A stretch of 64,000 nucleotides of DNA from an uncultured Spirochaetota bacterium (GTDB lineage: Bacteria > Spirochaetota > Spirochaetia > SZUA-6 > CAVTHK01). A model generated the notes under the pieces. The model ran no database searches, was not told where the DNA came from, and was given only the letters and a program-made list of their open reading frames with translations. Position numbers and translations under genes: made by a program. The stretch is taken from positions 1 through 64,000 of the forward strand of contig CAVTHK010000001.1 of the NCBI GenBank assembly GCA_963734495.1. The letters are read 5' to 3'. Below are positions 488 to 16,660 of this stretch, one piece after another (the first letter of the stretch is position 1; the number at the start of each line of letters is the position of its first letter).

Positions 488-600
488 ATGTAACATAGAG
501 TTGAGTCGCGCCGCCGCAAGCTCCCGATCACCCAGTCTATACGAGCCTGGGCTTCCGTGCCAGCGACGGTTAAGGCGTCGACTCCAACGATTTGTTATGT
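488..600 (-). repeat. attC: attC site 1 (empty)
   Basis: + strand TAACATAGAGTTGAG...CTCCAACGATTTGTTATGT; imperfect palindrome shared across the array. Confidence 0.9.
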
Positions 601-620
601 TTACCCGTCTTTCTCCCTCG

Positions 621-1273
621 CTACCATGTCCAGTCGGTGGGGTTCAAGACCGTGATTCTATCCTTCGGGAAGTCGCCGGTGTTACGGGTTATCAGAGTAA
701 GGATGTCGTTCCTGAGGGCGCAGTGGTACTGGAGGCTGTCCTCGAAGTCCTTGTGGGGCGCTGCAAGAGCTGCGTCGACTACTGTTTCGTCGACGGCGGC
801 AACACCCACCAGCCGGCGCAAGCGTCGGATTCGTTCCAGAGCGTAGGGCTTGTTTCGCAGCTTAGCCAGCAGATAGTACAGGTTCGCCACCACCACAGGA
901 GAGGTCAGACACCTGGCTTTCGACTTGTGCAGTTGGGAAAACAGCTTCAGCGCCATGCCGTGATGCGGTTCACGGCGAACGAAGAGATCAAGAATCACGT
1001 CCGTGTCCAGGAAGACGCTACGCACGCAGGTACTTGTCCCTAGGTAGCGGAACTTTGGGTCGTCGTGGGGAGGCGGTCGGTCCAGCGGGATCTCGTCTGC
1101 GATCTCGAGAACGACTGGGTCGATATCAGACGCGTCGGAAGCCTCGGCCGTCACGTGCCTGAGGTAGTTGGTTACCAGCTGGGACAGGCTCTTTTTCTGC
1201 TTGCGGGCGTATCGTTTGGCCTTCTCCACGACTTGGCGATCTACACTCTCCTTAGGGTGAGCTTTGTGGTCAT
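621..1273 (-). CDS. DUF6364-like antitoxin plus PIN toxin (two genes that appear fused or shifted by probable indels)
   Basis: MTTKLTL...EKAKRYARKQKKSLSQLVTNYL (antitoxin), then RSVFLDTDVILD...DFEDSLQYHCA...ITRNTGDF (PIN); frame breaks near 1250 and 1040. Confidence 0.8.
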
Positions 1274-1283
1274 TGACCCATCC

Positions 1284-1322
1284 TTACGTATGAATGTAGT
1301 ATCCCCATATACGTAATGTCAA
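1284..1322 (-). promoter_or_regulatory. TA promoter with overlapping operator inverted repeat
   Basis: Minus strand TTGACA-N18-TACATT; inverted repeat TTACGTAT (1284-1291) / ATACGTAA (1309-1316). Confidence 0.65.
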
Positions 1323-1444
1323 GGCCGAGAACACGCATCCCATAGCGCCCCGTGCCAGCGACCGCCACAGATCTCCCCGTTCCAGCGGCAGCAGCCACTT
1401 CCTTGCCGTGACCATCAAACGCTATCCGGCAAGCGCTCGGGTAA

Positions 1445-1557
1445 ACATAACATAGAGTTGAGTAGCGCCGCCGTCGCCTCACTGGCCACAGTGTACACGC
1501 GCCCAATCGACCGTGCCAGTCACGACTTCAGGCGTCTACTCCAACGATTTGTTATGG
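1445..1557 (-). repeat. attC: attC site 2 (empty)
   Basis: ACATAACATAGAGTTGAG...CTCCAACGATTTGTTATGG. Confidence 0.92.
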
Positions 1558-1578
1558 CGCAACCGGGTCGTCACGCAC

Positions 1579-2292
1579 CTACACGCGAGCTATACTGTAC
1601 CGGTCGCTGACTCTGACTTGAACCGCTCCTTTCTCCGAAATTGCCATGGGAGACCATTCGACTGCGGGAGTGCCCTCAAGATAGAACCTAATCGCCCTGC
1701 CGGTAGGCTCAATCTGCAGACTGGCTTCTGTTGTCATCAGCTGTTCCAGCTGCTCGTCAAGCGAATGCGCCGCTCTTTCGAGCCCGTTTGGTTCACTGAA
1801 TATCAACTTGTCGCGACCTACTTTCGGCATATCGGGGTACCTGCCCAGAACGTCTGCGGGTGCTTCCCACTGCACTGTCCGACAGAGGTCCCTCCCCTTC
1901 AGTGGCGGCACACCGTCTATGTCGAATCTGTCGTACCTGCCGAGTATTCGAACTAGCTCGATAGCGGTACTGTCGCCAAAGAATGGACAGCCCCTTGAGG
2001 AGATGAACGCCGGCGTTGAGTACTCGTTTCTTTCCCGGGCACCGATTTCCATCTCAGAGAAAGCAGGAGTGAAGATGATCGAAGTTCCTACTCTCCTTAT
2101 CTGGATCCAGTCGCCGCTCTTGCAGTGGATCGTCCCGCACTCCTCACATATGATTGACTGAGTACGGTCTGGCTCGACACTTGTGAGCTCGAGGTGCATT
2201 GAAGAGCTGCGTGTCGTCAGCGAATAGCGCGTCAGAAGGGTGCAGCCCGCCTCCACTTGAGGAGAAATCAAGTACGTGCTTGCGAACTTCAA
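1579..2292 (-). CDS. cassette hypothetical protein with CxxC...C motif
   Basis: ORF fills cassette 1551-2394; ICEECGTIHC motif; start uncertain. Confidence 0.6.
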   Translation of the reverse strand: MKFASTYLISPQVEAGCTLLTRYSLTTRSSSMHLELTSVEPDRTQSIICEECGTIHCKSGDWIQIRRVGTSIIFTPAFSEMEIGARERNEYSTPAFISSRGCPFFGDSTAIELVRILGRYDRFDIDGVPPLKGRDLCRTVQWEAPADVLGRYPDMPKVGRDKLIFSEPNGLERAAHSLDEQLEQLMTTEASLQIEPTGRAIRFYLEGTPAVEWSPMAISEKGAVQVRVSDRYSIARV

Positions 2293-2387
2293 GCCTAACT
2301 ACGACCCACACTGACACCCTCCTTTGCAGGGTCGTGAGACGACTCCGCATGATGCATCGGCGCCGCGACCTGCTTTTGGCTTTTGCG

Positions 2388-2495
2388 CCATAACATAGAG
2401 TTGAGCTGCGCCGCCGCTATCTACCGGGCAGCAGTCTATACTAGCCCAATCGACCGTGCAAGTCGGCGACTTAAGGCGTCAGCTCCAACGATTTG
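2388..2495 (-). repeat. attC: attC site 3, interrupted by IS110 copy 1 (remainder at 4039-4045)
   Basis: CCATAACATAGAG...CAACGATTTG then IS; GTTAGGC resumes after the IS. Confidence 0.92.
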
Positions 2496-2577
2496 ATACT
2501 TATTAAGGCCTCCCCCTCGGAGGTACGGTAGGATACCTACCGTCGCTCAACTAAACGATTTTGAGGAGGAGGCCACG

Positions 2578-3624
2578 ATGCACTTCTACAGCCGACAGCA
2601 CCGATTCTATTGCGGGATCGATCTGCACGCAAGGAGCATGTACGTCTGCATCATCGATTCTTCGGGGGCGGTGGTCTTCCACCGCAACCTGCCCACCGAC
2701 CGCCAGCAGCTCGTGGAGGCGATCGGGCCCTACAAGGAGGACATCGTTGTCGCGGTCGAGTGCATCTTCACCTGGTACTGGATCGCCGACGTGTGCGCCG
2801 AGCAGGCGATCCCGTTCGTCCTGGGTCACGCGCTGTACATGAAGGCGATTCACGGCGGCAAGACCAAGAACGACAAGATCGACTCACAGAAGATCGCGGG
2901 GCTGCTGCGCGGCGGCCTGCTGCCTCTCGCCTACGCTTACCCCCAGGCCATGCGCTCCACCCGCGATCTGCTTCGCCGCCGCATGTACCTCATGCACCAC
3001 CAGAGCGAGCTGCTGGCCCACATCCAGAACACCAACGCGCAGTACAACCTGGCGGCCTTTGAGAAGCGCATCAACTACCGTGGTAATCGGGCCGAGCTCG
3101 GCGAGCATTTCCAGGACCCGATGGTGAGAAAGAGCGTCGAGGCTGACAGCGAGGTCCTCGACACTCTCCACAAAGTGCTGCTGAAGCTCGAGGGCGCGGT
3201 CCTGGAGCAAGCCCGTGATCACGATCCGGCGACTCTGCAGTTGATCCGCAGCGTTCCCGGCATCGGCAAGGTGTTGTCTCTGGTGATCCTCTATGAGATC
3301 CAGGACATCGGCCGCTTCCCCACGGCGGGAAACTTCATCTCCTACGCGCGGCTGGTCAAATGCGCCCGCGAGTCTTCAGGAAAGAAGAGTGGATCGCGCA
3401 ACTCAAAGATCGGCAACGTCCACCTCAAGTGGGCCTTCTCCGAGGCGGCCGTGACGTTCTTGCGCAACAACGAGCCCGCCCAGCTCTATCACCACAAGCT
3501 CGTCGCCAAGTACGGCAAGGCCAAGGCTCTGTCGATCATCGCGCAGAAGCTCGGCCGCACCCTCTACTTCATCCTCAAGCACAAGGAGGCTTTCGACCCC
3601 CTGCGTTTTTACCAAGGAGGTTGA
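2578..3624 (+). CDS. IS110 DEDD recombinase/transposase
   Basis: GIDLH, VAVEC and KNDKID acidic motifs; VPGIG and RESSG (candidate catalytic Ser) in the C-terminal domain; GAGGAGG RBS. Confidence 0.96.
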   Translation: MHFYSRQHRFYCGIDLHARSMYVCIIDSSGAVVFHRNLPTDRQQLVEAIGPYKEDIVVAVECIFTWYWIADVCAEQAIPFVLGHALYMKAIHGGKTKNDKIDSQKIAGLLRGGLLPLAYAYPQAMRSTRDLLRRRMYLMHHQSELLAHIQNTNAQYNLAAFEKRINYRGNRAELGEHFQDPMVRKSVEADSEVLDTLHKVLLKLEGAVLEQARDHDPATLQLIRSVPGIGKVLSLVILYEIQDIGRFPTAGNFISYARLVKCARESSGKKSGSRNSKIGNVHLKWAFSEAAVTFLRNNEPAQLYHHKLVAKYGKAKALSIIAQKLGRTLYFILKHKEAFDPLRFYQGG

Positions 3625-3910
3625 TGAGAGAAAGGGACAGGGTGTGCAGCAAACCTGTCACGCCTAACTGGACTGCCATCCCTGTGCGCGCTCTATGTTC
3701 GGGCAAGTCCCACGATTTGATTGGTCGCACACCCTGGTCCCGTTTTCTCTGTGCACGACAACGGAACACCGATACGCGGTCTGCCCCGCGCCGAGCCGCA
3801 AAAGTAACTGAGGCACCGCGAGGTGACCCCCTTTTTTGATTCGGACGGCGGTCGGGCACCAATAGTCTTCTAGAGCGCTTCGGGCGACTCTCGATACGTG
3901 TTTGGTGCAG
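3625..3910 (+). ncRNA. putative bridge/seek RNA of IS110 copy 1 (same in copies 2-3, slightly diverged in copy 4)
   Basis: Hairpin 3627-3750 whose internal loop holds GCCTAAC and ACGATTTG (attC target); second hairpin 3856-3908 holds ATACGTG (IS end plus core); RNA boundaries approximate. Confidence 0.75.
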
Positions 3911-4237
3911 GCTGCGTTCCTGCACCCATCGCAGAAACCAAGTCGGACCAACTTGTCGGGTGTTCTTGCGCAGTCCCGAGGCAGCCACACGGTTGTCAGG
4001 ACTTCTCACGCCTCTTGACGAGGGAAGGCCTTATACGTGTTAGGCTGCCAACGCAGCCAGCCAACGCTCCACGGACTTGCAGCCTTGGCTTTGGCCGGCC
4101 TCCGTGATGCTGAACCTGGCCTGGTTGGGCTTGTCACCAGTCTGCACCGCCATCACGGAGATGAGTCTATCCGGCCCATCGACGGAGCGGTGGTGATCTG
4201 TGCGTTGCCCAGGACGTAGTGGCAACGGCGAGTAGCT

Positions 4238-4474
4238 CTACAGTGAATGAACACAGTATTTGTACAACAACCCTCTGATGAGCAGCTTTGTGGTTCCGTC
4301 TGCCGCGATCAAGTAGCAGGGTGGAGAGGGGCTCTGCACCATTTCGATGAGCAGACCCTTCTCCTTGAGCGCACCAAGAGTCTTGTAGAGCGCAGGAGCG
4401 TTCTCGGCCACGGTCTTGTTGATGTCCGGCAGCCGGTTTCGATAGATGGCTTGGCCCATCCCGTATGGCGCCAC
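4238..4474 (-). CDS. short or truncated cassette ORF, unknown function
   Basis: Best ORF in cassette 4039-4587; no clear start or RBS. Confidence 0.35.
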   Translation of the reverse strand: MAPYGMGQAIYRNRLPDINKTVAENAPALYKTLGALKEKGLLIEMVQSPSPPCYLIAADGTTKLLIRGLLYKYCVHSL

Positions 4475-4580
4475 GACTGCAAGCTCTGCGCATGCTTCGC
4501 CCTCTTTGGCCAGTGTAGCGTGCGCAGACGGCGGGCGATCAGCAAGCCCATAGGCACGCCGCTCGGTCGCGTTCGACGCG

Positions 4581-4687
4581 ACATAACATAGAGTTGAGTA
4601 GCGCCGCCGAGGCTCCCCAGCTCACAGTGTAGTCGAGCCTCGCCGACCGTGCCAGTCGGCCCTTCAGGCGTCTACTCCAACGATTTG
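4581..4687 (-). repeat. attC: attC site 4, interrupted by IS110 copy 2 (remainder at 6231-6237)
   Basis: attC consensus ending CAACGATTTG; GTTATGC after the IS. Confidence 0.92.
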
Positions 4688-6229
4688 ATACTTATTAAGG
4701 CCTCCCCCTCGGAGGTACGGTAGGATACCTACCGTCGCTCAACTAAACGATTTTGAGGAGGAGGCCACGATGCACTTCTACAGCCGACAGCACCGATTCT
4801 ATTGCGGGATCGATCTGCACGCAAGGAGCATGTACGTCTGCATCATCGATTCTTCGGGGGCGGTGGTCTTCCACCGCAACCTGCCCACCGACCGCCAGCA
4901 GCTCGTGGAGGCGATCGGGCCCTACAAGGAGGACATCGTTGTCGCGGTCGAGTGCATCTTCACCTGGTACTGGATCGCCGACGTGTGCGCCGAGCAGGCG
5001 ATCCCGTTCGTCCTGGGTCACGCGCTGTACATGAAGGCGATTCACGGCGGCAAGACCAAGAACGACAAGATCGACTCACAGAAGATCGCGGGGCTGCTGC
5101 GCGGCGGCCTGCTGCCTCTCGCCTACGCTTACCCCCAGGCCATGCGCTCCACCCGCGATCTGCTTCGCCGCCGCATGTACCTCATGCACCACCAGAGCGA
5201 GCTGCTGGCCCACATCCAGAACACCAACGCGCAGTACAACCTGGCGGCCTTTGAGAAGCGCATCAACTACCGTGGTAATCGGGCCGAGCTCGGCGAGCAT
5301 TTCCAGGACCCGATGGTGAGAAAGAGCGTCGAGGCTGACAGCGAGGTCCTCGACACTCTCCACAAAGTGCTGCTGAAGCTCGAGGGCGCGGTCCTGGAGC
5401 AAGCCCGTGATCACGATCCGGCGACTCTGCAGTTGATCCGCAGCGTTCCCGGCATCGGCAAGGTGTTGTCTCTGGTGATCCTCTATGAGATCCAGGACAT
5501 CGGCCGCTTCCCCACGGCGGGAAACTTCATCTCCTACGCGCGGCTGGTCAAATGCGCCCGCGAGTCTTCAGGAAAGAAGAGTGGATCGCGCAACTCAAAG
5601 ATCGGCAACGTCCACCTCAAGTGGGCCTTCTCCGAGGCGGCCGTGACGTTCTTGCGCAACAACGAGCCCGCCCAGCTCTATCACCACAAGCTCGTCGCCA
5701 AGTACGGCAAGGCCAAGGCTCTGTCGATCATCGCGCAGAAGCTCGGCCGCACCCTCTACTTCATCCTCAAGCACAAGGAGGCTTTCGACCCCCTGCGTTT
5801 TTACCAAGGAGGTTGATGAGAGAAAGGGACAGGGTGTGCAGCAAACCTGTCACGCCTAACTGGACTGCCATCCCTGTGCGCGCTCTATGTTCGGGCAAGT
5901 CCCACGATTTGATTGGTCGCACACCCTGGTCCCGTTTTCTCTGTGCACGACAACGGAACACCGATACGCGGTCTGCCCCGCGCCGAGCCGCAAAAGTAAC
6001 TGAGGCACCGCGAGGTGACCCCCTTTTTTGATTCGGACGGCGGTCGGGCACCAATAGTCTTCTAGAGCGCTTCGGGCGACTCTCGATACGTGTTTGGTGC
6101 AGGCTGCGTTCCTGCACCCATCGCAGAAACCAAGTCGGACCAACTTGTCGGGTGTTCTTGCGCAGTCCCGAGGCAGCCACACGGTTGTCAGGACTTCTCA
6201 CGCCTCTTGACGAGGGAAGGCCTTATACG
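4688..6229 (+). mobile_element. IS110 copy 2
   Basis: Appears identical to copy 1 (offset 2192); TG flanks. Confidence 0.95.
4770..5816 (+). CDS. IS110 transposase
   Basis: Identical 348-aa protein. Confidence 0.96.
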   Translation: MHFYSRQHRFYCGIDLHARSMYVCIIDSSGAVVFHRNLPTDRQQLVEAIGPYKEDIVVAVECIFTWYWIADVCAEQAIPFVLGHALYMKAIHGGKTKNDKIDSQKIAGLLRGGLLPLAYAYPQAMRSTRDLLRRRMYLMHHQSELLAHIQNTNAQYNLAAFEKRINYRGNRAELGEHFQDPMVRKSVEADSEVLDTLHKVLLKLEGAVLEQARDHDPATLQLIRSVPGIGKVLSLVILYEIQDIGRFPTAGNFISYARLVKCARESSGKKSGSRNSKIGNVHLKWAFSEAAVTFLRNNEPAQLYHHKLVAKYGKAKALSIIAQKLGRTLYFILKHKEAFDPLRFYQGG

Positions 6230-6303
6230 TGTTATGCGGCTCCAGGTTGAATGACAACCAAGCCGACTGCGTCATTGTGGTACGGCCTGACTACTCGGCG
6301 GTG

Positions 6304-6840
6304 TCATAGGCTCATCCTCATGTGGATATCATCAGGCTCGCGCGCGTACATCTCCGGGTCAGCTTGCGCGGTCGGGAGGAAGCCGACGCTCGTGTAGAAC
6401 CTGATCGTATTCTCCGACGGCGTAGCCGAAACATAGAGATACTTGGCGCCTAGCCTGCGGGCGTCGTCCTTGATCAGCGCGACCAGCTGCGTGCCGACCC
6501 CGATACCTCTGTAGCCTTTGCTGACCCAGAGGCCCGATAGGTTGACCATGTTCCTATCGGACTCCATTGGGTTGCGATTCAGGATCGCCATCCCCACAAG
6601 CCGGGTGCCATCTCGGGCACCGTAGACGGCGGCACCCTCGGACAGGCGCCGCCTGATCCTTTCGACGCGACAAGCCTTTTCCTGCGGCTTCCAGTCAGGT
6701 ATGTCCTGGTGGTCGTCATGGAGAGTAAGTCGACCATTGTGCATTCGAAACACCCGGTCGACCTTTTCGCTGCGATCGAGGTCAATAAGCTGTGGAATAT
6801 CGGCGTCGGTAAGCTCTTTGTAGAGTATGGACGAACTCAC
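6304..6840 (-). CDS. GNAT N-acetyltransferase cassette
   Basis: LWVSKGYRGIGVGTQL acetyl-CoA motif A; NTIRFYTSVGF; GTG start after GGAGG. Confidence 0.9.
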   Translation of the reverse strand: MSSSILYKELTDADIPQLIDLDRSEKVDRVFRMHNGRLTLHDDHQDIPDWKPQEKACRVERIRRRLSEGAAVYGARDGTRLVGMAILNRNPMESDRNMVNLSGLWVSKGYRGIGVGTQLVALIKDDARRLGAKYLYVSATPSENTIRFYTSVGFLPTAQADPEMYAREPDDIHMRMSL

Positions 6841-7041
6841 GGGTCGCCTCCCATAGGGTATGCCGCTCATGCGGCAAGAACCTGCAACGGTACCTGGGGA
6901 TCACGAGGAGGAAGGCGGGAACAGGATGTGGCGTTGCGGGCGACCTGTCAACTCATCGTTTCGTGACAGAAGCGTTGTCGGAAAGGCACTCCCGACCGTC
7001 ATGAGGCAGGGCTGTTTGCCTTTCGATCAACCCTCTGAGCC

Positions 7042-7149
7042 GCATAACATAGAGTTGAGTAGCGCCGCCGAGTAGCTCCCAGGCCCACAGTATAGTCGAG
7101 CCTCCCCGACCGTGCCAGCGGCCCTTCAGGCGTCTACTCCAACGATTTG
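7042..7149 (-). repeat. attC: attC site 5, interrupted by IS110 copy 3 (remainder at 8693-8699)
   Basis: attC consensus; GTTAGGT after the IS. Confidence 0.92.
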
Positions 7150-8691
7150 ATACTTATTAAGGCCTCCCCCTCGGAGGTACGGTAGGATACCTACCGTCGC
7201 TCAACTAAACGATTTTGAGGAGGAGGCCACGATGCACTTCTACAGCCGACAGCACCGATTCTATTGCGGGATCGATCTGCACGCAAGGAGCATGTACGTC
7301 TGCATCATCGATTCTTCGGGGGCGGTGGTCTTCCACCGCAACCTGCCCACCGACCGCCAGCAGCTCGTGGAGGCGATCGGGCCCTACAAGGAGGACATCG
7401 TTGTCGCGGTCGAGTGCATCTTCACCTGGTACTGGATCGCCGACGTGTGCGCCGAGCAGGCGATCCCGTTCGTCCTGGGTCACGCGCTGTACATGAAGGC
7501 GATTCACGGCGGCAAGACCAAGAACGACAAGATCGACTCACAGAAGATCGCGGGGCTGCTGCGCGGCGGCCTGCTGCCTCTCGCCTACGCTTACCCCCAG
7601 GCCATGCGCTCCACCCGCGATCTGCTTCGCCGCCGCATGTACCTCATGCACCACCAGAGCGAGCTGCTGGCCCACATCCAGAACACCAACGCGCAGTACA
7701 ACCTGGCGGCCTTTGAGAAGCGCATCAACTACCGTGGTAATCGGGCCGAGCTCGGCGAGCATTTCCAGGACCCGATGGTGAGAAAGAGCGTCGAGGCTGA
7801 CAGCGAGGTCCTCGACACTCTCCACAAAGTGCTGCTGAAGCTCGAGGGCGCGGTCCTGGAGCAAGCCCGTGATCACGATCCGGCGGCTCTGCAGTTGATC
7901 CGCAGCGTTCCCGGCATCGGCAAGGTGTTGTCTCTGGTGATCCTCTATGAGATCCAGGACATCGGCCGCTTCCCCACGGCGGGAAACTTCATCTCCTACG
8001 CGCGGCTGGTCAAATGCGCCCGCGAGTCTTCAGGAAAGAAGAGTGGATCGCGCAACTCAAAGATCGGCAACGTCCACCTCAAGTGGGCCTTCTCCGAGGC
8101 GGCCGTGACGTTCTTGCGCAACAACGAGCCCGCCCAGCTCTATCACCACAAGCTCGTCGCCAAGTACGGCAAGGCCAAGGCTCTGTCGATCATCGCGCAG
8201 AAGCTCGGCCGCACCCTCTACTTCATCCTCAAGCACAAGGAGGCTTTCGACCCCCTGCGTTTTTACCAAGGAGGTTGATGAGAGAAAGGGACAGGGTGTG
8301 CAGCAAACCTGTCACGCCTAACTGGACTGCCATCCCTGTGCGCGCTCTATGTTCGGGCAAGTCCCACGATTTGATTGGTCGCACACCCTGGTCCCGTTTT
8401 CTCTGTGCACGACAACGGAACACCGATACGCGGTCTGCCCCGCGCCGAGCCGCAAAAGTAACTGAGGCACCGCGAGGTGACCCCCTTTTTTGATTCGGAC
8501 GGCGGTCGGGCACCAATAGTCTTCTAGAGCGCTTCGGGCGACTCTCGATACGTGTTTGGTGCAGGCTGCGTTCCTGCACCCATCGCAGAAACCAAGTCGG
8601 ACCAACTTGTCGGGTGTTCTTGCGCAGTCCCGAGGCAGCCACACGGTTGTCAGGACTTCTCACGCCTCTTGACGAGGGAAGGCCTTATACG
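7150..8691 (+). mobile_element. IS110 copy 3
   Basis: Near-identical to copy 1 (one T>A amino-acid change, DPAT>DPAA); TG flanks. Confidence 0.95.
7232..8278 (+). CDS. IS110 transposase
   Basis: 348 aa with DEDD motifs. Confidence 0.96.
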   Translation: MHFYSRQHRFYCGIDLHARSMYVCIIDSSGAVVFHRNLPTDRQQLVEAIGPYKEDIVVAVECIFTWYWIADVCAEQAIPFVLGHALYMKAIHGGKTKNDKIDSQKIAGLLRGGLLPLAYAYPQAMRSTRDLLRRRMYLMHHQSELLAHIQNTNAQYNLAAFEKRINYRGNRAELGEHFQDPMVRKSVEADSEVLDTLHKVLLKLEGAVLEQARDHDPAALQLIRSVPGIGKVLSLVILYEIQDIGRFPTAGNFISYARLVKCARESSGKKSGSRNSKIGNVHLKWAFSEAAVTFLRNNEPAQLYHHKLVAKYGKAKALSIIAQKLGRTLYFILKHKEAFDPLRFYQGG

Positions 8692-8768
8692 TGTTAGGTG
8701 GACCCCGTCCGCGAGCGAGTCCGACTAGCGAGCTGCCGCCAGCACGAAGCCACGCGGCTGCCTAGGGG

Positions 8769-9372
8769 TCAGCGGGTCCTGAGTGCCCGATCGTAGACGT
8801 ACTTCTGCATGGAGTAGTCGTCTGGATACTCGCGTTGTGCACGGCCTTTCGCTGGCGAGCTCGTCGACACGGCTCATGTATGACTTTGCGGAAAACTGCT
8901 GGTCATAGGCGTACTTTTGCATCGAATAGTCGTCGGGATACTCCCGTACGGCGATCCCTTTGACTTCCGGATCTCCGACCACAGCCATGTAGCGCTTTGC
9001 CGAAAGTTGTTGATCGTAGACGTATTTCTGCATGGAGTAGTCGCCGGGATGCTCTCTGGCGGCAATGGCCTTAATTTCGGCGTCGTCAACCGTTCCGATG
9101 CATCGTTTTGCCGCGGTCTGTTGGTCGTACACGTATTTCTGCATCACGAAGTCCTCGGGGTGCTCGCGAAGCGCAATTGCCCTGGTCTCTGGGTCGGCCA
9201 CCGTGCCCATGTAGCGATACGCAGACAGCTGCTGATTGTAGACGTACTGCTGCAGGTGCGCATCGTTAGGGTATTCGCGTTCCGCAAACGCCCGTAGACG
9301 CGACTCAATCGGCTGCGCGGCCGCAGCCGCGGAGAGGCAGAGAACGAGAATCCACGCCGGTGCCTTTCTCAT
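8769..9372 (-). CDS. secreted 37-aa tandem-repeat protein cassette (frameshift near 8855)
   Basis: Signal peptide MRKAPAWILVLCLSAAAAA; repeats RE(H/Y)PxDYxMQKYVYDQQ; fifth repeat continues in another frame to a TGA at 8769. Confidence 0.8.
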
Positions 9373-9389
9373 GCAAACCTCCAAGGGCC

Positions 9390-9504
9390 ACATAACATAG
9401 AGTTGAGTAGCGCCGCCGAGGAGCTACCTGATCCACAGCATAGTGAAGCCTTTCCGACCGTGCCAGTCGGCCTCTCAGGCGTCTACTCCAACGATTTGTT
9501 GGGC
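9390..9504 (-). repeat. attC: attC site 6 (empty)
   Basis: ACATAACATAGAG...CAACGATTTGTTGGGC. Confidence 0.92.
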
Positions 9505-9516
9505 AGGCACCGGCGG

Positions 9517-9879
9517 TCACCGGGTGTCACGTCGGATGACAATAGCGTGCATGCCGGCCTCGTTATGCTTTTCGTGGATCAGATCCATCTCTTCCGGAGT
9601 GCACGACACCAGCAGCTTGATCTCTGCATCCATCTTGTTGAGATCCACGGTGCATGCGATAGCGTCGATTCGCCCGGAACCACTTGTGCCTTGCCATACG
9701 TCCGTTTCGTGTCCGTCCGCGGAGATGGTCTCTGCCAGGTAGCCGTAGTCCACGGGATAGACGAAATCTGCGAATCGGGGATGGCGACTGCCCTTTGGTC
9801 GATCGATAATGATGCGCTTCGACTGAACAAGGGTGTCGAGGGCTTGCCAATAGGCGGCATTGTCAGCGTTTGAAGCCAA
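9517..9879 (-). CDS. small inorganic pyrophosphatase-like protein cassette
   Basis: IDRPKGSRHP...YPVDYGYL...DGHETDVW motif; probable TTG start after GGAG. Confidence 0.8.
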   Translation of the reverse strand: MASNADNAAYWQALDTLVQSKRIIIDRPKGSRHPRFADFVYPVDYGYLAETISADGHETDVWQGTSGSGRIDAIACTVDLNKMDAEIKLLVSCTPEEMDLIHEKHNEAGMHAIVIRRDTR

Positions 9880-10217
9880 AGAGATCTCCTGCCCTGGCGT
9901 CACAATTTGCGCACAGCCACGCCGCGCGGTTGCTTGCAGCGATTCTATGTCCGTTGGCGCAGTCCTGCAACATTGGTGTTGGGCACTCGCACGTTGGGAA
10001 ACGGAGCCCAACGGTTGCGCGCCACAAAGCGAAGCTGAGACGAGGTCAAGGCCGTATTGATGGTACGCCGCCAGGCCACCCGAGGAGGCAGCTGCGATCT
10101 CAGCGGGGATCTCGGCATGCGTGAGCGAGGGGTGTTGTGTCTCGCTTGCGCAACGTTCCTTCCGGCTCCGGGTCGCCCGCGGCGAAGACTTTGATCGCAT
10201 GGCTAAGCGTCGTGACT

Positions 10218-10331
10218 GCCCAACATAGAGTTGAGTAGCGCCGCCGAGTAGCTCCCCAGCTTCCATGTACTGTAGCCTCCTCGGCCGTGCCAGCCGGCCC
10301 TTCAGGCGTCTACTCCAACGATTTGTTGGAT
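10218..10331 (-). repeat. attC: attC site 7 (empty)
   Basis: GCCCAACATAGAG...CAACGATTTGTTGGAT. Confidence 0.92.
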
Positions 10332-10403
10332 GGCCTTCGTCTGCAGCATGCTGCGCTGCCCTTGCGTACAGTGGACTCCGAGCAGGCCAACGGGTACACT
10401 CTC

Positions 10404-10844
10404 TTACGCGCCTCGCGCCCGCTTCCAGGTAACCCTGACCGTTGGCGATTTGCCCTTCACTTGAGCCGCCGGGCCAGTAAGTATCAACCTGTCGCCGTCG
10501 AGCGTTACGGCTCGCTCGATAGCGGTACCCGCCCAGTTTGGAAACAGGCTAACTTCGATTCGATGCACTACGCCGTCGCGGCCCGTCTCATACCTGCCGC
10601 TGTATGATAGGTAGCCGTCAAATGCGGTGGCCTTTTCCTGCGGTGTACCGTCATGGCCAGCGAATCCGCTCGCCACAAACGGCGGACGGTCACCCGACAT
10701 CACGGCAACGGACATGAAGCCGTCTGCGGCGTATAGAATGTACCCAACTGGCGTCTGCCCATAGGGGTACCGAATCTCGCCAGTGTCAGCTATGACTTCG
10801 AACGAGATAAGGGACCACCTGCCAACAAGTGGGGACCCGGCCAT
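10404..10844 (-). CDS. lipocalin-like domain protein cassette
   Basis: LVGRWSLISF...GYILYAADGFMSV...YLSYSGRY...PNWAG pattern. Confidence 0.85.
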   Translation of the reverse strand: MAGSPLVGRWSLISFEVIADTGEIRYPYGQTPVGYILYAADGFMSVAVMSGDRPPFVASGFAGHDGTPQEKATAFDGYLSYSGRYETGRDGVVHRIEVSLFPNWAGTAIERAVTLDGDRLILTGPAAQVKGKSPTVRVTWKRARGA

Positions 10845-11137
10845 TGCTTCCCTCCCAATTTGGGATGTCGAGGTTGCTGCGGCACCTATGTGCACCGTTT
10901 CCAATACAAACCCACGGCCCGCTGTCGCCTAATAGGTACCGGAGCCTTGGCGCGCCCGTTGGTGGGCGGCCGCGTTCCATACTGTAGTCGCCAAGCCTCG
11001 CGCTCGCAAGTCAATCGGTTCGCTTCAGTTGCTGCCCGTCGGCGTAGCGGGGCCTGGCACGAGCGTTACTGTAGTAGCAGCCCCACTCCATGGCTGGACG
11101 GTCGAGTGCCCCCGATCAGTAACCGAAACTCAGGTCC

Positions 11138-11261
11138 ATCCAACGAAGAGTTGAGCAGCCGCGGATTAATTACCGAAGTGGCTACCTGCACACATTGTAA
11201 CGCCCCCTCGGCTCACCGTGCCAGCGGGATCATAGCGGTCTGCTCAAACGACTTGTTATGT
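11138..11261 (-). repeat. attC: attC site 8 (variant type, empty)
   Basis: ATCCAACGAAGAGTTGAGCAGCCGC...GCGGTCTGCTCAAACGACTTGTTATGT. Confidence 0.88.
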
Positions 11262-11938
11262 GCGCCAGTCTCACCGCCACTCGCCCAGCCAGCCGGGGGG
11301 CTCATGTCTGCGGCAGGGGTCGTCGACCCCGGGCTTGCGCCACCCTGTCAGGCGCCCCTGGCTCCGTGAGGCCCGTCGGCTACCAGGGTGTCTATGGCGA
11401 GGGCGGCGAGAGCCGCGGTGGCGAGCAGCAGCGCGCAGTTACTTTTCGCCCTGGGAGGGCCGCCTCCATCGCGTTTCGGCTCGCCGAAGCGGACAGATGC
11501 GCCTGCGATCCTGTGGCGGCTCGCACCGTAGATGGGCGGGCCTGCCCGCTGCGCTGCGTAGTGAGCCGCGGCGGGTCATGGGCTGCGAGCCGTTGCATGA
11601 GCAAGGATGCCTTTCGATGTCGGCTCGGGTGTATGGAGCGAGTCTGAAGGAGAGCAGTTCGGCGGTGACGGTTAACAGGCTGGTCCCGAGCCGCCGAGAA
11701 AGAGCAGTCCCCTCCCAGGGCGAACAGGACGCTGAAAGCGTAATCTTTCAAGCCCTGCCCCCCGGGTGCAGCGGAGGGTAGGCAGTGACGAGGCGGAACA
11801 TGTGGCGATAAGGAAGGCAGAGAACCGGGCGAGGGCCGCGGGCGAACGGTGTCCGACCCCAAGGATACTTCCCTGCCCAGTTCGCTGTGAGCCTATCGAT
11901 CTCTGATGCCGGCCAAATCGCGACAGGGTGCACATAAC
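11255..11938. other. ORF-less cassette, copy A (candidate structured ncRNA)
   Basis: Bounded by GTTATGTGC / GCACATAAC; no convincing ORF shared with copy B; many internal inverted repeats. Confidence 0.75.
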
Positions 11939-12046
11939 GAAGAGTTGAGCAGCCGCGCCGAAGTGGCTACCTGAACACATTGTAACGCCCCCTCGGCTCA
12001 CCGTGCCAGCGGGATCTTAGCGGTCTGCTCAAACGACTTGTTATGT
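11932..12046 (-). repeat. attC: attC site 9 (variant type, empty)
   Basis: Near-identical to attC 8. Confidence 0.88.
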
Positions 12047-12725
12047 GCGCCAGTCTCACCGCCACTCGCCCAGCCAGCCGGGGGGCTCATCTCTGCGGCA
12101 GGGGTCGTCGACCCCGGGCTTGCACCACCCTGTCAGGCGCCCCTGGCTCCGTGAGGCCCATCGGCTGTCAGGGTGTCTATGGCGAGGGCGGCGAGGGCCG
12201 CGGTGGCGAGCAGCAGCGCGCAGTTACTTTTCGTCCTGGGAGGGGCCGCCTCCATCGCGTTTCGGCTCGCCGAAGCGGACAGATGCGCCTGCGATCCTGT
12301 GGCGGCTCGCACCGTAGATGGGCGGGCCTGCCCGCTGCGCTGCGTAGTGAGCCGGGGCGCGTCATGGGCTGCGAGCCGTTGCATGAGCAAGGATGCCTTT
12401 CGATGTCGGCTCGGGTGTATGGAGCGAGTCTGAAGGAGAGCAGTTCGGCGGCGACGGTTAACAGGCTGGTCCCGAGCCGCCGAGAGAGAGCAGTCCCCTC
12501 CCAGGGCGAACGGGACGCTGAAAGCGCAATCTTTCACGCCCTGCCCCCCGGGTGCAGCGGAGGGTAGGCAGTGACGAGGCGGAACATGTGGCGATAAGGA
12601 AGGCAGAGAACCGGGCGAGGGCCGCGGGCGAACGGCGTCCGACCCCAAGGATACTTCCCTGCCCAGTTCGCTGTGAGCCCGTCAGGTCTCTGATGCCGGC
12701 CAGTTCGCGACAGGGTGCACATAAC
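12040..12725. other. ORF-less cassette, copy B
   Basis: Tandem, slightly diverged duplicate of 11255-11938. Confidence 0.75.
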
Positions 12726-12827
12726 ATAGAGTTGAGCTGCGCCGCCGCAAGCTCCCGAGCATCCAGTCTATACCAGCCCTGCCGGCCGTGCCAGGTCGGC
12801 CGTTAAGGCGTCAGCTCCAACGATTTG
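12719..12827 (-). repeat. attC: attC site 10, interrupted by IS110 copy 4 (remainder at 14370-14376)
   Basis: attC consensus; GTTAGGT after the IS. Confidence 0.92.
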
Positions 12828-14368
12828 ATACTTATTAAGGCCTCCCCCTCGGAGGTACGGTAGGATACCTACCGTCGCTCAACTAAACGATTTTGAGGAG
12901 GAGGCCACGATGCACTTCTACAGCCGACAGCACCGATTCTATTGCGGGATCGATCTGCACGCAAGGAGCATGTACGTCTGCATCATCGATTCTTCGGGGG
13001 CGGTGGTCTTCCACCGCAACCTGCCCACCGACCGCCAGCAGCTCGTGGAGGCGATCGGGCCCTACAAGGAGGACATCGTTGTCGCGGTCGAGTGCATCTT
13101 CACCTGGTACTGGATCGCCGACGTGTGCGCCGAGCAGGCGATCCCGTTCGTCCTGGGTCACGCGCTGTACATGAAGGCGATTCACGGCGGCAAGACCAAG
13201 AACGACAAGATCGACTCACAGAAGATCGCGGGGCTGCTGCGCGGCGGCCTGCTGCCTCTCGCCTACGCTTACCCCCAGGCCATGCGCTCAACGCGCGATC
13301 TGCTTCGCCGCCGCATGTACCTCATGCACCACCAGAGCGAGCTGCTGGCCCACATCCAGAACACCAACGCGCAGTACAACCTGGCGGCCTTTCAGAAGCG
13401 CATCAACTACCGTGGTAATCGGGCCGAGCTCGGCGAGCATTTCCAGGACCCGATGGCGAGAAAGAGCGTCGAGGCTGACAGCGAGGTCCTCGACACTCTC
13501 CACAAAGTGCTGCTGAAGCTCGAGGGCGCGGTCCTGGAGCAAGCCTGTGATCACGATCCGGCGGCACTGCAGTTGATCCGCAGCGTTCCTGGCATCGGCA
13601 AGGTGTTGTCTCTGGTGATCCTCTACGAGATCCAGGACATCGGCCGCTTCCCCACGGCGGGAAACTTCATCTCCTACGCGCGGCTGGTCAAATGCGCCCG
13701 CGAGTCTTCAGGAAAAAAAAGCGGATCGCGCAACTCAAAGATCGGCAACGTCCACCTCAAGTGGGCGTTCTCGGAGGCGGCCGTGACGTTCTTGCGCAAC
13801 AACGAGAGCGCCCAGCTCTATCACCACAAGCTCGTCGCCAAGTACGGCAAGGCCAAGGCTCTGTCGATCATCGCGCAGAAGCTCGGCCGCACCCTCTACT
13901 TCATCCTCAAGCACAAGGAGCCTTTCGACCCCGTGCGTTTCTACCAAGGAGGTTGATGAGAGAAAGGGACAGGGTGTGCAGCAAACCTGTCACGCCTAAC
14001 TGGACTGCCATCCCTCTGCGTTCTCTGTATTCGGGCAAGTCCCACGATTTGATTGGTCGCACACCCTGGTCCCGTTTTCTCTGTGCACGACAACGGAACA
14101 CCGATACGCGGTCTGCCCCGCGCCGATCCGCCAAAAGTAACTGAGGCTCCGCAAGGTGACCCCCTTTCTTGATTCGGACGGCAGTCGGGAACCAAATGTC
14201 TTCTAGAGCGCCTCGGGCGACTCTCGATACGTGTTTGGTGCAGGCTGTGTTCCTGCATCCATCGCTGAAACCAAGTCGGACCAGTTTATCGGAGTTCTTC
14301 CCAGGCCAGCGGCAACCACACGGTTGTCAGGACCCGTTACGCCTCTTGACGCCGGGAGGCCTTATACG
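12828..14368 (+). mobile_element. IS110 copy 4 (diverged variant)
   Basis: Same termini and TG flanks; scattered substitutions from about 13290 onward. Confidence 0.95.
12910..13956 (+). CDS. IS110 transposase (variant)
   Basis: 348 aa with a few substitutions relative to copy 1. Confidence 0.95.
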   Translation: MHFYSRQHRFYCGIDLHARSMYVCIIDSSGAVVFHRNLPTDRQQLVEAIGPYKEDIVVAVECIFTWYWIADVCAEQAIPFVLGHALYMKAIHGGKTKNDKIDSQKIAGLLRGGLLPLAYAYPQAMRSTRDLLRRRMYLMHHQSELLAHIQNTNAQYNLAAFQKRINYRGNRAELGEHFQDPMARKSVEADSEVLDTLHKVLLKLEGAVLEQACDHDPAALQLIRSVPGIGKVLSLVILYEIQDIGRFPTAGNFISYARLVKCARESSGKKSGSRNSKIGNVHLKWAFSEAAVTFLRNNESAQLYHHKLVAKYGKAKALSIIAQKLGRTLYFILKHKEPFDPVRFYQGG

Positions 14369-14424
14369 TGTTAGGTTGTTCCCGTTCGCCCTGGGCGGTT
14401 CCGGTGCGAACCGAGCTGGTCTCA

Positions 14425-15273
14425 TCACATGACTCGACCCGCGATCGCGACCCTGTACCAGAACATCAGGCCGAAAGGGTGCTCCTTAAGGACACGCATT
14501 TCGGACTCAGCAGACCGGAACTCCTCCACGCGAATTAGCCCGGTAGATATCAGCTGATCCCGCCAATTGTCTGGAATGCTTGAGTCAAAGAAAGCCCGGA
14601 TGGTCTTGCCCCTGTCGCCGAAGGTACCCGATAGCCGCAGTGCAACATTGTCGGCAGGAAAGTATGGGTTGACTTCGATTTCGGTCAGGCCCACTGCGGC
14701 AAAAGACGCGTGCAGATGCCTGCCACAGCGAAAGTCGAGGTAGCGGGTGTCGGCTGCGGGAGTCAGGTTCTGGGCCAGCCCTTCAAGCACCTTGATAACC
14801 GAGGGACAGTCGGGGTATAGGAACAAGTCTGATAGGCTTGCCACTATCGCGAGCACTTGGCCACCCGAACGAGTGACTCGTTTCTGTTCCCGCAGAGCCT
14901 TCAGCGGGTCACGTAACCAGTCGAACAAACCGTTGGTGTAGCACAGGTCAAATACGCCGTCCTGATACGGGAGAGCATACGCGTCGCCTACGTCAAAGGT
15001 TGCGTTTCGCACGCCCGCGTCCGTGGCTATGGAAGCGCACCGGGCTATGTTGGCCGCCACAGAATCAAGCCCCTTGACTTCGCCGGGCTGGACAACGGAG
15101 GCGACGTCAACGGTTATCTGTCCCTCACCACATCCAACGTCGAGAACCGACATGCCGGGATGGAGGAATTCGACTAACGGTTGGCAGCTGTCGTGCAAGG
15201 TGCGAGTCCGAAAAGCGCCCATTCGGTCGAACTTCCCGAACTCGTCGCCCTCCGTCTCTGCCGGTTGCTTCAC
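14425..15273 (-). CDS. class I SAM-dependent methyltransferase cassette
   Basis: VLDVGCGEG motif I; GDAYALPYQDGVFD; probable GTG start after GGAGG. Confidence 0.9.
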   Translation of the reverse strand: MKQPAETEGDEFGKFDRMGAFRTRTLHDSCQPLVEFLHPGMSVLDVGCGEGQITVDVASVVQPGEVKGLDSVAANIARCASIATDAGVRNATFDVGDAYALPYQDGVFDLCYTNGLFDWLRDPLKALREQKRVTRSGGQVLAIVASLSDLFLYPDCPSVIKVLEGLAQNLTPAADTRYLDFRCGRHLHASFAAVGLTEIEVNPYFPADNVALRLSGTFGDRGKTIRAFFDSSIPDNWRDQLISTGLIRVEEFRSAESEMRVLKEHPFGLMFWYRVAIAGRVM

Positions 15274-15462
15274 GCGTGACCTCCAACGCCGAGCCGCAGA
15301 GAGACATTGCAGCCGCGCCTGAAGCTGCTCAGCCAGAAGTCTAGCGTATGGCGGCAGTGAAAACAATAGTCATGGGGGAACGGACGCCTAAGGCGCCCGA
15401 GAAGGTTGTCCACGTGATGGTTACCGCACCGCGACAAAGCCCCACCGTCCAGCGCCTGAACA

Positions 15463-15577
15463 ACCTAACATAGAGTTGAGTAGCGCCGCCGAATTGCTAC
15501 CCAGCTCACAGCATAGTTGAGCCTCCCCGACCGTGCCAGCCGGCCCTTCAGGCGTCTACTCCAACGATTTGTTATGT
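15463..15577 (-). repeat. attC: attC site 11 (first in array, empty)
   Basis: ACCTAACATAGAG...CAACGATTTGTTATGT. Confidence 0.92.
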
Positions 15578-15616: not shown

Positions 15617-16471
15617 CTACTTGAGTGATTCCGCCAAGAAATCCCAAACGGTCTGATCCAATTGGTCTGTGTGGCCGCGCCCACTCTCTACTATCAGCGT
15701 GTGAGACGCGCCCGCTTTCTTCATTCGTGCGTCCAGCAGCAGCGCCTGATCCAGGGAGACGGAGACATCCTTGTCCCCATGGATGGTCAATATTGGCGTC
15801 GTGCCCGGTTTGACATAGTTGATGGGACTTGCCTTTTCGTACTCTTCACGCTTCGCCTGAAGAGAGCCCCCTAAATACGCACTCACGTATGGTTCTCGGT
15901 TCCAACTAACGAGGTCCGTTGCCCCCGAGAGATTGACGACCGCTTGCACGGAGCTCGAGTACTGAAGATAGTCGTCCCGCCCTTCGAGCCCGTCTGCCGG
16001 AACCGTCAGCCCCAGCAGCAGCGCCAAGTTTCCTCCTGATGAGAAGCCAACGACGCCAATGCGTGCTGGATCGATGTCATACTGCGCAGCATTTGCCCTG
16101 AGAAACCGTATGGCGCTCTTGACATCATAGACTTGCGCCGGGAAGATCCCGATAGGTCGGCGGTTGGAGTTCTCTACCGACGCACTATAATCTACAGCGA
16201 CTCCGACATATCCCCTCTGATTGGCAAGATCCAGGGCGTACCAGAATCCCTCCCGGTTAAGAGTCTTGTCGTATCCCCAACCGTTGCCGCAAAGAAACAC
16301 AATTGCCGGCTTCGCAACGCCTAGCGGCTGAGGTCTCTGAATGTCCATCTGAAGTTCTCTGCCATTTATCACCCGATAGGGGACCGCATAGGTTTCAACG
16401 GACGTCTGCGCATGTAGGGATGCAACCGAAACCGACACAATGATGGACACGCCAATGATGCTGACTTTCAC
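15617..16471 (-). CDS. secreted alpha/beta hydrolase (esterase/lipase), first cassette
   Basis: GFSSGG nucleophile elbow, HGDKD, GRGH; signal-like N-terminus. Confidence 0.88.
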   Translation of the reverse strand: MKVSIIGVSIIVSVSVASLHAQTSVETYAVPYRVINGRELQMDIQRPQPLGVAKPAIVFLCGNGWGYDKTLNREGFWYALDLANQRGYVGVAVDYSASVENSNRRPIGIFPAQVYDVKSAIRFLRANAAQYDIDPARIGVVGFSSGGNLALLLGLTVPADGLEGRDDYLQYSSSVQAVVNLSGATDLVSWNREPYVSAYLGGSLQAKREEYEKASPINYVKPGTTPILTIHGDKDVSVSLDQALLLDARMKKAGASHTLIVESGRGHTDQLDQTVWDFLAESLK

Positions 16472-16599
16472 CGACCTCTCCACCTTACTATGCGACCGCG
16501 GGCCGCGACTCAGAAGAGTCTGCCGGAGGCACCTTCTTCTGTCAACGCCCCCCGCCGCAAAGCGTTTCCGTCGCACCGATCAACGACACAATCAGAGAG

Positions 16600-16660
16600 A
16601 CATAACATATTGTGTCGCCGGCAGCCGTCGACCGCTTGCACAACGTTGTCGACCGACTCG
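16600..16660 (-). other. attI: attI site (approximate)
   Basis: ACATAAC core closes the first cassette but is not followed by attC consensus; lies directly upstream of intI. Confidence 0.7.

Follow-up and report, generated by a model that had tools for sequence, protein, structure and literature searches.

Occupancy of integron attC sites by an IS1111-type element tracks the match to its predicted guide RNA in a spirochaete genome

Results

The stretch of DNA considered here (the window) covers positions 1 to 64,000 of contig C1 in the 5.4-Mb draft genome (G000) of an uncultured member of the Spirochaetota. It contains a chromosomal integron cassette array, in which one insertion sequence (IS) of about 1.54 kb and of the IS1111 type interrupts four of 11 attC sites, always at the same point. 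An original prediction, made from the letters of this window alone, held that the occupancy of these sites follows their match to a guide carried by the element. Our analysis covered the whole genome, a second spirochaete genome and relatives of the element, and leads to a milder version: with a probability of roughly three in four, an RNA-guided IS1111-type element favours the attC sites that match its guide, and the match acts as a bias on occupancy, not as a gate.

The integron integrase gene intI is located at 17065–18003 on the plus strand (TIGR02249, 385.6 bits against a cut-off of 265 bits). The cassette array extends leftwards from it, with the cassettes on the minus strand, which is hence the cassette (top) strand. 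Because intI is divergent from this leftward array, the arrangement is that of a classical integron. Between 481 and 15577 there are 11 repeats of about 115 nt which separate single open reading frames (ORFs), all on the minus strand. These encode, among others, a PIN-domain protein, a GNAT acetyltransferase, a lipocalin-like protein and a methyltransferase, and several are without Pfam hits. Each repeat starts with ...(A/C)TAACATAGAGTTGAG and ends with ...CTCCAACGATTTG followed by TTNNNN. The attC end motifs RYYYAAC...GTTRRRY were found, as were imperfect palindromes with extra-helical bases, the features which define an integron array. On the minus strand each attC opens with RYYYAAC (R''). 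When the arms of attC 11 were paired by eye, two unpaired bases lay in the 3' arm of the plus strand, beside the R'' end, as expected for the R''-L'' arm. On the plus strand the G of the conserved ...ACGATTTG is found at 594, 1551, 2495, 4687, 7149, 9498, 10325, 11255, 12040, 12827 and 15571, the sites at 11255 and 12040 being variants which read ACGACTTG.

All four IS copies of the window are on the plus strand. Copy 1 (2496–4039) measures 1544 bp, counting one TG core, and has the left end ATACTTATTAAGGCC and the right end GGCCTTATACGTG. Over a 1535-base internal query, with which all copy identities were measured, copy 2 (4688–6231) is 100% and copy 3 (7150–8693) 99.9% identical to it. A fifth copy is found on contig C9 (C9:21535-23195). 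Copies 1 to 3 thus are 99.9–100% identical, and the four copies including the one on C9 99.6–100%. Copy 4 (12828–14370) has diverged to 96.4%, yet it has an intact 348-aa ORF and the same guide segments (13994–14000 and 14044–14051). This points to a second sublineage or to an arrival together with its cassette. The C9 copy and copy 2 have 115 nt of right flank in common (95.7%), after which the sequences diverge. The GNAT cassette is reduced there to its last few codons, and the locus looks like a truncated cassette at the array edge or an IS-mediated rearrangement. An isolated 56-nt stretch at C16:278653-278708, 86% identical to the IS right end and with no transposase nearby, resembles a solo right end left behind by a related element. 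A search for DNA of the IS in the same family could draw on only two genomes, the other of which was without it.

In copy 1 the transposase of 348 aa is encoded at 2578–3624 on the plus strand and contains the domains DEDD_Tnp_IS110 (PF01548, 2.1e-15) and Transposase_20 (PF02371, 3.7e-19). It is preceded by a leader of 82 nt (2496–2577) and followed by a non-coding 3' region of 415 nt (3625–4039). Subterminal inverted repeats TAAGGCC/GGCCTTA lie inward of the left and right ends by 8 and 6 nt, respectively, as they also do in relatives. Judged by transposase domains, downstream non-coding region and subterminal repeats, the element is of the IS1111 type. TG is present at both junctions. The left end GATACT(C/T)AT-TAAGGCC is kept in relatives and the flank preceding it varies, therefore the left boundary is fixed. 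With the transposase gene on the plus and the cassette ORFs on the minus strand, the IS is oriented antisense to the cassettes, and all five copies have entered attC at one and the same point, at its R'' end.

Directly 3' of the transposase stop codon a structure is predicted (3626–3749, plus strand) in which a long closing stem, formed by 3626–3647 with approximately 3727–3749, surrounds an internal loop. This putative seekRNA, or target-binding loop, carries GCCTAAC on its 5' side and ACGATTTG on its 3' side. The former, the T guide segment (3662–3668, plus strand), is complementary to the plus-strand GTTAGGC to the right of the insertion point, and it covaries with the right flank in relatives. 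The latter, the B guide segment (3712–3719, plus strand), is identical to the plus strand left of the insertion point, and its covariation with the left flank is weaker (55 loci). Guide-like segments are present in every copy. An alignment of 27 sequences shows compensatory changes in 14 of the 15 predicted pairs of the closing stem; the motifs framing the two guides, AAC-TGG and TTG-ATTGG, are conserved, and the bases preceding both motifs vary. According to the available parts of Siddiquee et al. 2024 (PMC11187229), IS1111 seekRNAs, including those of the attC-seeking ISKpn4, ISPst6 and ISPa25, have the top-strand match 5' of the bottom-strand match, and the order of the T and B segments is the same here. 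An Rfam scan of copy 1 with its flanks returned no bridge or seekRNA family, its sole match being a chance lncRNA with an E value of 0.12. The guide had originally been assigned from the window; its position, its fold, the covarying stem and the covariation of guide heptamer and right flank in 61 relatives argue that this assignment holds.

The attC sites are all on the minus strand. Four of them are occupied: attC 3 (main part 2383–2495, left of copy 1), attC 4 (4577–4687, left of copy 2), attC 5 (7036–7149, left of copy 3) and attC 10 (12712–12827, left of copy 4). The complement of their R'' is found beyond the IS as TTAGGC (4040–4045), TTATGC (6232–6237), TTAGGT (8694–8699) and TTAGGT (14371–14376), respectively, and the heptamers following the occupied sites are GTTAGGC, GTTATGC, GTTAGGT and GTTAGGT. 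Among the empty sites, attC 1 (481–600; nhmmer match 481–594) and attC 11 (15457–15577, nearest to intI) continue after ...ACGATTTG with TTATGT, attC 2 (1438–1557) with TTATGG, attC 6 (9384–9504) with TTGGGC and attC 7 (10213–10331) with TTGGAT. The corresponding heptamers are GTTATGT (at 594 and 15571), GTTATGG, GTTGGGC and GTTGGAT. The two variant sites attC 8 (11132–11261) and attC 9 (11925–12046, within a tandemly duplicated cassette) are also empty and read ACGACTTG-TTATGT. The sequence and the profile matches thus reproduce exactly the 11 sites, the four insertions and the flanking heptamers that had been listed before.

To which bases does the guide correspond? They do not belong to the start of the next cassette, where they could be exchanged, but form the complement of R'', the inverse core in the attC which the cassette itself carries, because the cassettes are on the minus strand, intI (17065–18003) is on the plus strand and the extra-helical bases are in the 3' arm of the plus strand.

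We compared sites with at most one strict mismatch to GTTAGGC with those having two or more by one-sided Fisher tests. In the window, four of five sites of the first class are occupied and none of six of the second (p = 0.015). For the whole genome, an nhmmer profile of the 11 window sites gave 30 matches at E < 0.001 on C1, C9, C11 (beside a second intI), C13 and C18, 29 of which were tabulated; one partial match on C9, which is without the relevant end, was left out. Five of 12 sites with at most one mismatch are occupied versus none of 17 others (p 0.0067). Restricted to the 21 sites with a perfect left half, the numbers are 5/11 and 0/10 (p 0.023). The single site with no mismatch is occupied. 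Among sites with one mismatch, four are occupied, one is scarred and six are empty; with two mismatches one is scarred and 12 are empty, and all four sites with three mismatches are empty. Counting wobbles as pairs (by hand, perfect left half), three of five sites are occupied at zero mismatches, two of 12 at one and none of four at two or more.

The two scarred sites are otherwise empty attC sites which carry the 4 bp ATAC exactly at the IS insertion point: …GATTTG-ATAC-TTATGT on the minus strand of contig C9 near 24146 and …GATTTG-ATAC-TTATGC on the plus strand of contig C13 near 212020. The IS left end itself opens with ATAC. To the right of the C9 site lies a paralogue of the cassette from window position 595 on, which has no scar. 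These insertions are possibly excision footprints. A crude scan for footprints of this type in relatives yielded 276 mostly irrelevant matches and no clear case.

An independent replicate was available in G002, a complete spirochaete genome with a related IS (loci L021–L023) which has a different guide, GCATAAC, and hence the expected target GTTATGC. Its nine copies are 100% identical over the query, and eight of them, one of which is 3 bases shorter, reside in one 38-kb array. A profile of the attC sites of this array gave 16 sites, eight occupied and eight empty. Strict mismatches number 2, 1, 2, 1, 1, 1, 0 and 1 at the occupied and 3, 2, 2, 3, 3, 2, 2 and 2 at the empty sites, so that all six sites with at most one mismatch are occupied versus two of the ten others (Fisher p 0.0035; Mann-Whitney p 0.0015). 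When the guides were exchanged the signal was lost: G002 scored with the guide of the window gave p 0.5, and the source genome scored with the guide of G002 p 0.6–0.7. The heptamer GTTATGT illustrates this. One mismatch from the guide of G002, it is occupied at four of four sites of that array; two mismatches from the guide of the source genome, it is occupied at none of eight sites there, one of which is scarred. Related right flanks were seen in only one pair of occupied G002 sites, and the flanks of that pair have diverged but the IS copies have not; therefore, the insertions are separate recent events. The ninth copy (G002:C1:2735938-2737498; L021, L096) is located outside any attC found by the array profile, with GTTATGT on its right, and may represent an off-array target.

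Relatives of the transposase with 53–76% amino-acid identity were collected as 80 loci from genomes and 80 from metagenomes. Guide heptamer and right junction could be parsed in 61 loci, 29 of 30 pairs of the first set and 32 of the second; from the first set seven loci had before been dropped as mis-registered, and one of two copies of the same IS was left out. Strict mismatches between guide and right flank total 79, versus a mean of 106.8 after shuffling, and none of 20000 shuffles reached 79. If wobbles are allowed the total is 47, versus a shuffled mean of 71.4, again reached by none of 20000. Zero, one, two and three mismatches occur in 13, 22, 21 and 5 loci if counted strictly, and in 25, 27, 7 and 2 loci with wobbles as pairs; 32 of the 79 mismatches are wobble-compatible (G-T or U-G). 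By position 1 to 7 of the heptamer the mismatches number 0, 1, 0, 19, 11, 19 and 29. GTT is almost invariant, positions 4 to 7 tolerate mismatch, and the preference is graded. Clear compensations were also seen, as a guide predicting GTTGTGC is found at a GTTGTGC site and one predicting GTTATAC at a GTTATAC site. Among 26 relatives with the guide of the window, the flank is GTTAGGC in seven, GTTCGGC in five, GTTGGGC in four and GTTAGCC in two, with one each of eight others including GTTATGT. The fit of guide to right flank, as read from these loci, is loose. The left-half guide (8 nt preceding ATTGG) covaries with the left flank as well (170 mismatches versus 223 shuffled, 55 loci), with many loci showing 3–5 mismatches or a one-base register shift. 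In the relatives L020, L027, L036, L046, L090 and L095 and in the copies of genome G007, TG precedes the left end but GG or AG stands at the right junction; where only G is common to both junctions, the core may consist of a single base or lie elsewhere than at TG. A left-flank similarity search for empty neighbour sites in the 80 genome loci gave any candidate in seven loci only and was uninformative.

Several further features of the array deserve mention. The tandem duplicate cassette with the variant attC ACGACTTG covers 11173–11756 and 11958–12542 with 97–98% identity. In a cassette ORF at 8725–9393 (minus strand, 222 aa, no Pfam hit) five repeats are arranged in frame, with a period of 111 nt and 70–91% identity to the reference copy over a 43-nt core. 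Between a hydrolase ORF (15617–16576, minus strand) and intI the sequence ACATAAC is found at about 16600 (16595–16610). Its minus-strand reading, GTTATGT, makes it a candidate for the core of attI, in which case the hydrolase gene would be the first cassette. A second integron integrase is encoded at C11:2484-3419 (425 bits). Sites of attC type are located at the very start of contigs C11 (1–3419), C18 (961–6104) and C1 (1–600), therefore the arrays are broken at contig ends, where repeated IS and attC sequences have probably cut them.

Discussion

Following these results, the array would have been invaded by an RNA-guided IS1111-type element which behaves like those of the IS1111-attC group. 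The element would encode, besides its DEDD transposase, a downstream structured RNA (a seekRNA, or the target loop of a bridge RNA) with two short guides. The guide ACGAUUUG would pair with the spacer/L'' side of attC, and GCCUAAC with the complement of the inverse core R''. The IS would insert at the TG which separates the two halves, close to the attC 5' end and antisense to the cassettes, and sites whose R'' matches the guide would be hit more often. The left half is nearly invariant among the attC sites of this genome, therefore differences between cassettes should come mainly from the four variable bases of R''. Both G-T and U-G wobbles probably count as matches. Expression of the RNA, its base pairing and the kinetics of insertion are what we infer here from anatomy, covariation and occupancy counts.

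A number of observations weigh against a preference for matching sites, or at least limit it. The mismatch threshold was picked after the data had been seen, and the sample in the window is small. Independent events are few in the genome as well, as copy 2 and the C9 copy have a right flank in common and copy 4 (96.4%) may have arrived with its cassette. When the C9 copy is removed from the 21 sites with a perfect left half p becomes 0.043, and it takes the same value when the two ATAC-scarred sites are counted as once occupied. Six sites with one mismatch are empty in the genome, five of these with a perfect left half (GTTGGGC twice, GTTATGC, GCTAGGC and GTTAGTC). The empty GTTATGC, on C9 at 26559, has the same heptamer as an occupied site, and the two GTTGGGC sites are empty though their mismatch is a U-G wobble and four of the 26 same-guide relatives use GTTGGGC. 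Two or more strict mismatches are found at the insertions of 26 of the 61 relatives, versus 13 at perfect sites; the guides and ends of the relatives were parsed by regular expressions, and some guides of the second set may be mis-picked. In G004 (Desulfosarcina alkanivorans), with ten transposase matches, one of them partial, the eight readable copies have 1, 1, 3, 2, 2, 1, 1 and 2 mismatches to their own guide (counted by hand). The attC sites of G004 are heterogeneous and a profile built from the occupied ones recovered these only, therefore its empty sites could not be listed and it does not serve as a third replicate; G007 and five further genomes have too few clustered copies for an occupancy comparison. 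The mismatches in G004 and the ninth copy of G002 outside a detected attC are among the reasons why we speak of a bias and not of a gate. What had been claimed at the outset is thus partly supported. Occupancy does track the guide match, genome-wide and in a second genome, but the number of mismatches is not decisive, and the explanation that GTTGGGC stays empty for a mismatch near the core fails, given the same-guide relatives at GTTGGGC (4/26) and GTTCGGC (5/26). The original interpretation was right in direction, too strong in wording and wrong on which bases of the cassette matter.

Could the conserved left half ACGATTTG together with GTT be sufficient for targeting? Occupancy would then reflect a few chance events and local hopping, and the correlation at positions 4 to 7 would be a coincidence of a small sample. 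The 26 relatives at two or more mismatches, position 7 being mismatched in 29 of 61, and the six empty one-mismatch sites are in line with this, as is the fact that three of the four window copies are at the neighbouring sites 3, 4 and 5. Furthermore, the available part of a 2026 preprint on IS621 reports many off-target insertions for which it is enough that the substrate matches one half of the bridge RNA (10.64898/2026.08.31.748434). But chance should not repeat itself in G002 (p 0.0035) and vanish when the guides are exchanged, nor should the guide heptamer covary with positions 4 to 7 of the right flank across 61 relatives, to a degree that none of 20000 shuffles reached. We therefore consider this explanation unlikely. 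Another possibility is that the IS spread with duplicated or imported cassettes, or survives only beside dispensable ones, in which case occupancy would mirror the history of the cassettes. Such hitch-hiking or post-insertion selection could account for the right flank common to copy 2 and the C9 copy, for the 3.6% by which copy 4 differs from the others and for the truncated cassette adjoining the C9 copy. It agrees poorly with copies 1, 2 and 3, which are 99.9–100% identical but flanked by unrelated cassettes, and with G002, where among eight near-identical copies only one pair of adjoining cassettes is paralogous, and that one diverged. Nor would selection on cassette content agree with the guide of the resident IS in each of two genomes whose guides differ, which makes this idea quite improbable.

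Cause and effect might also be reversed, if insertion or a later event had changed the bases beside the IS toward the guide and the match were a consequence of occupancy. By eye, in eight of ten window cassettes the heptamer at the right end of one site and that at the left end of the following site are exact complements. Both exceptions adjoin IS copies, namely 1 and 3, and deviate toward the guide; two exceptions would both fall beside an IS by chance with a probability of 6/45 = 0.13. As a test of such rewriting, the genome was searched for paralogues of the cassettes that adjoin copies 1 and 3, and none was found. Copies 2 and 4, however, keep the complement, as do, by eye, at least four of the eight occupied sites in G002, and exceptions without any IS occur on C18. 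Moreover, in the strand-exchange model for the IS110 family the flanks beyond the core are unaltered. Rewriting is accordingly very improbable in our view. The graded preference for sites matching the guide remains the reading that we favour.

By its anatomy and its insertion site, the element works like those of the IS1111-attC group. Like ISPa21, ISPst6, ISKpn4 and the more distant ISPa25, it has a DEDD transposase, a long downstream non-coding region and subterminal inverted repeats. Several copies of IS1111-attC elements within one chromosomal array were reportedly already noted by Tetu and Holmes in 2008. The fixed insertion point near the attC 5' end, antisense to the cassettes, is a common trait as well; for ISPa21 and ISPst6 the accessible text of a 2010 paper places it 'near the 5'-end' of attC (PMC3001079). 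In the predicted guide RNA, too, the top-strand match precedes the bottom-strand match (PMC11187229, in part). A tblastn search against plasmids for a named IS yielded only unnamed matches below 60% amino-acid identity. To what is known of the IS1111-attC group, the present analysis adds that occupied and empty attC sites were scored one by one for their match to the guide, in this genome and again in a second one.

As far as the available parts of Durrant et al. 2024 (PMC11208160) and Hiraizumi et al. 2026 (PMC13626964) go, the bridge RNA recombinases IS621 / IS110 likewise have a two-part guide which flanks a core dinucleotide in a stem-closed internal loop, and pick their target by base pairing with some tolerance of mismatches. 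Unlike in these, the predicted RNA of the present element is 3' of the transposase gene, the order of the guides is reversed (the IS1111 arrangement) and the target is a structured recombination site. ISPpu10 (bioRxiv 10.64898/2026.03.19.712850), also of the IS110 family, resembles the present case in its repeated, hairpin-forming natural targets. Under the 'sequence-structure dual match' described in the available part of that preprint, base pairing is one of two layers of specificity, the hairpin structure of the target being the second. By analogy, attC secondary structure could explain why some well-matched sites, for instance GTTGGGC, stay empty. The sufficiency of a half match in IS621 and the hairpin layer in ISPpu10 suggest, from these two preprints, why the match would be a bias and not a gate.

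A more far-reaching idea is offered only tentatively, and we would sooner doubt than trust it. The four variable bases of R'' might form a susceptibility code, borne by the cassette, for IS1111-attC elements, and IS lineages might retune their T guide of 7 nt to the R'' sequences which the host offers. Wobbles would count, and multi-copy arrays could be read as a specificity assay by position, with GTT fixed and position 7 nearly free. The two ATAC footprints would mark past visits, one of them at a poorly matched site; such elements therefore could leave, imprecisely.

Conclusion

Elements of the IS1111-attC group disable or reshape integron cassette arrays, clinical ones included, and their guide RNAs are under development as programmable recombinases. 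In the literature searched, from which the founding papers on the attC group and supplementary files were excluded, we found no published mismatch profile for IS1111-type guides. The gain is incremental, since the mechanism and the tropism for attC were already known; the use lies in the natural read-out of guide tolerance. If the match to R'' indeed governs which cassettes are hit, the vulnerability of a cassette would move together with it, since IntI recombination does not separate R'' from its cassette, and natural arrays would provide free information on the mismatch and wobble tolerance of IS1111-type guides.

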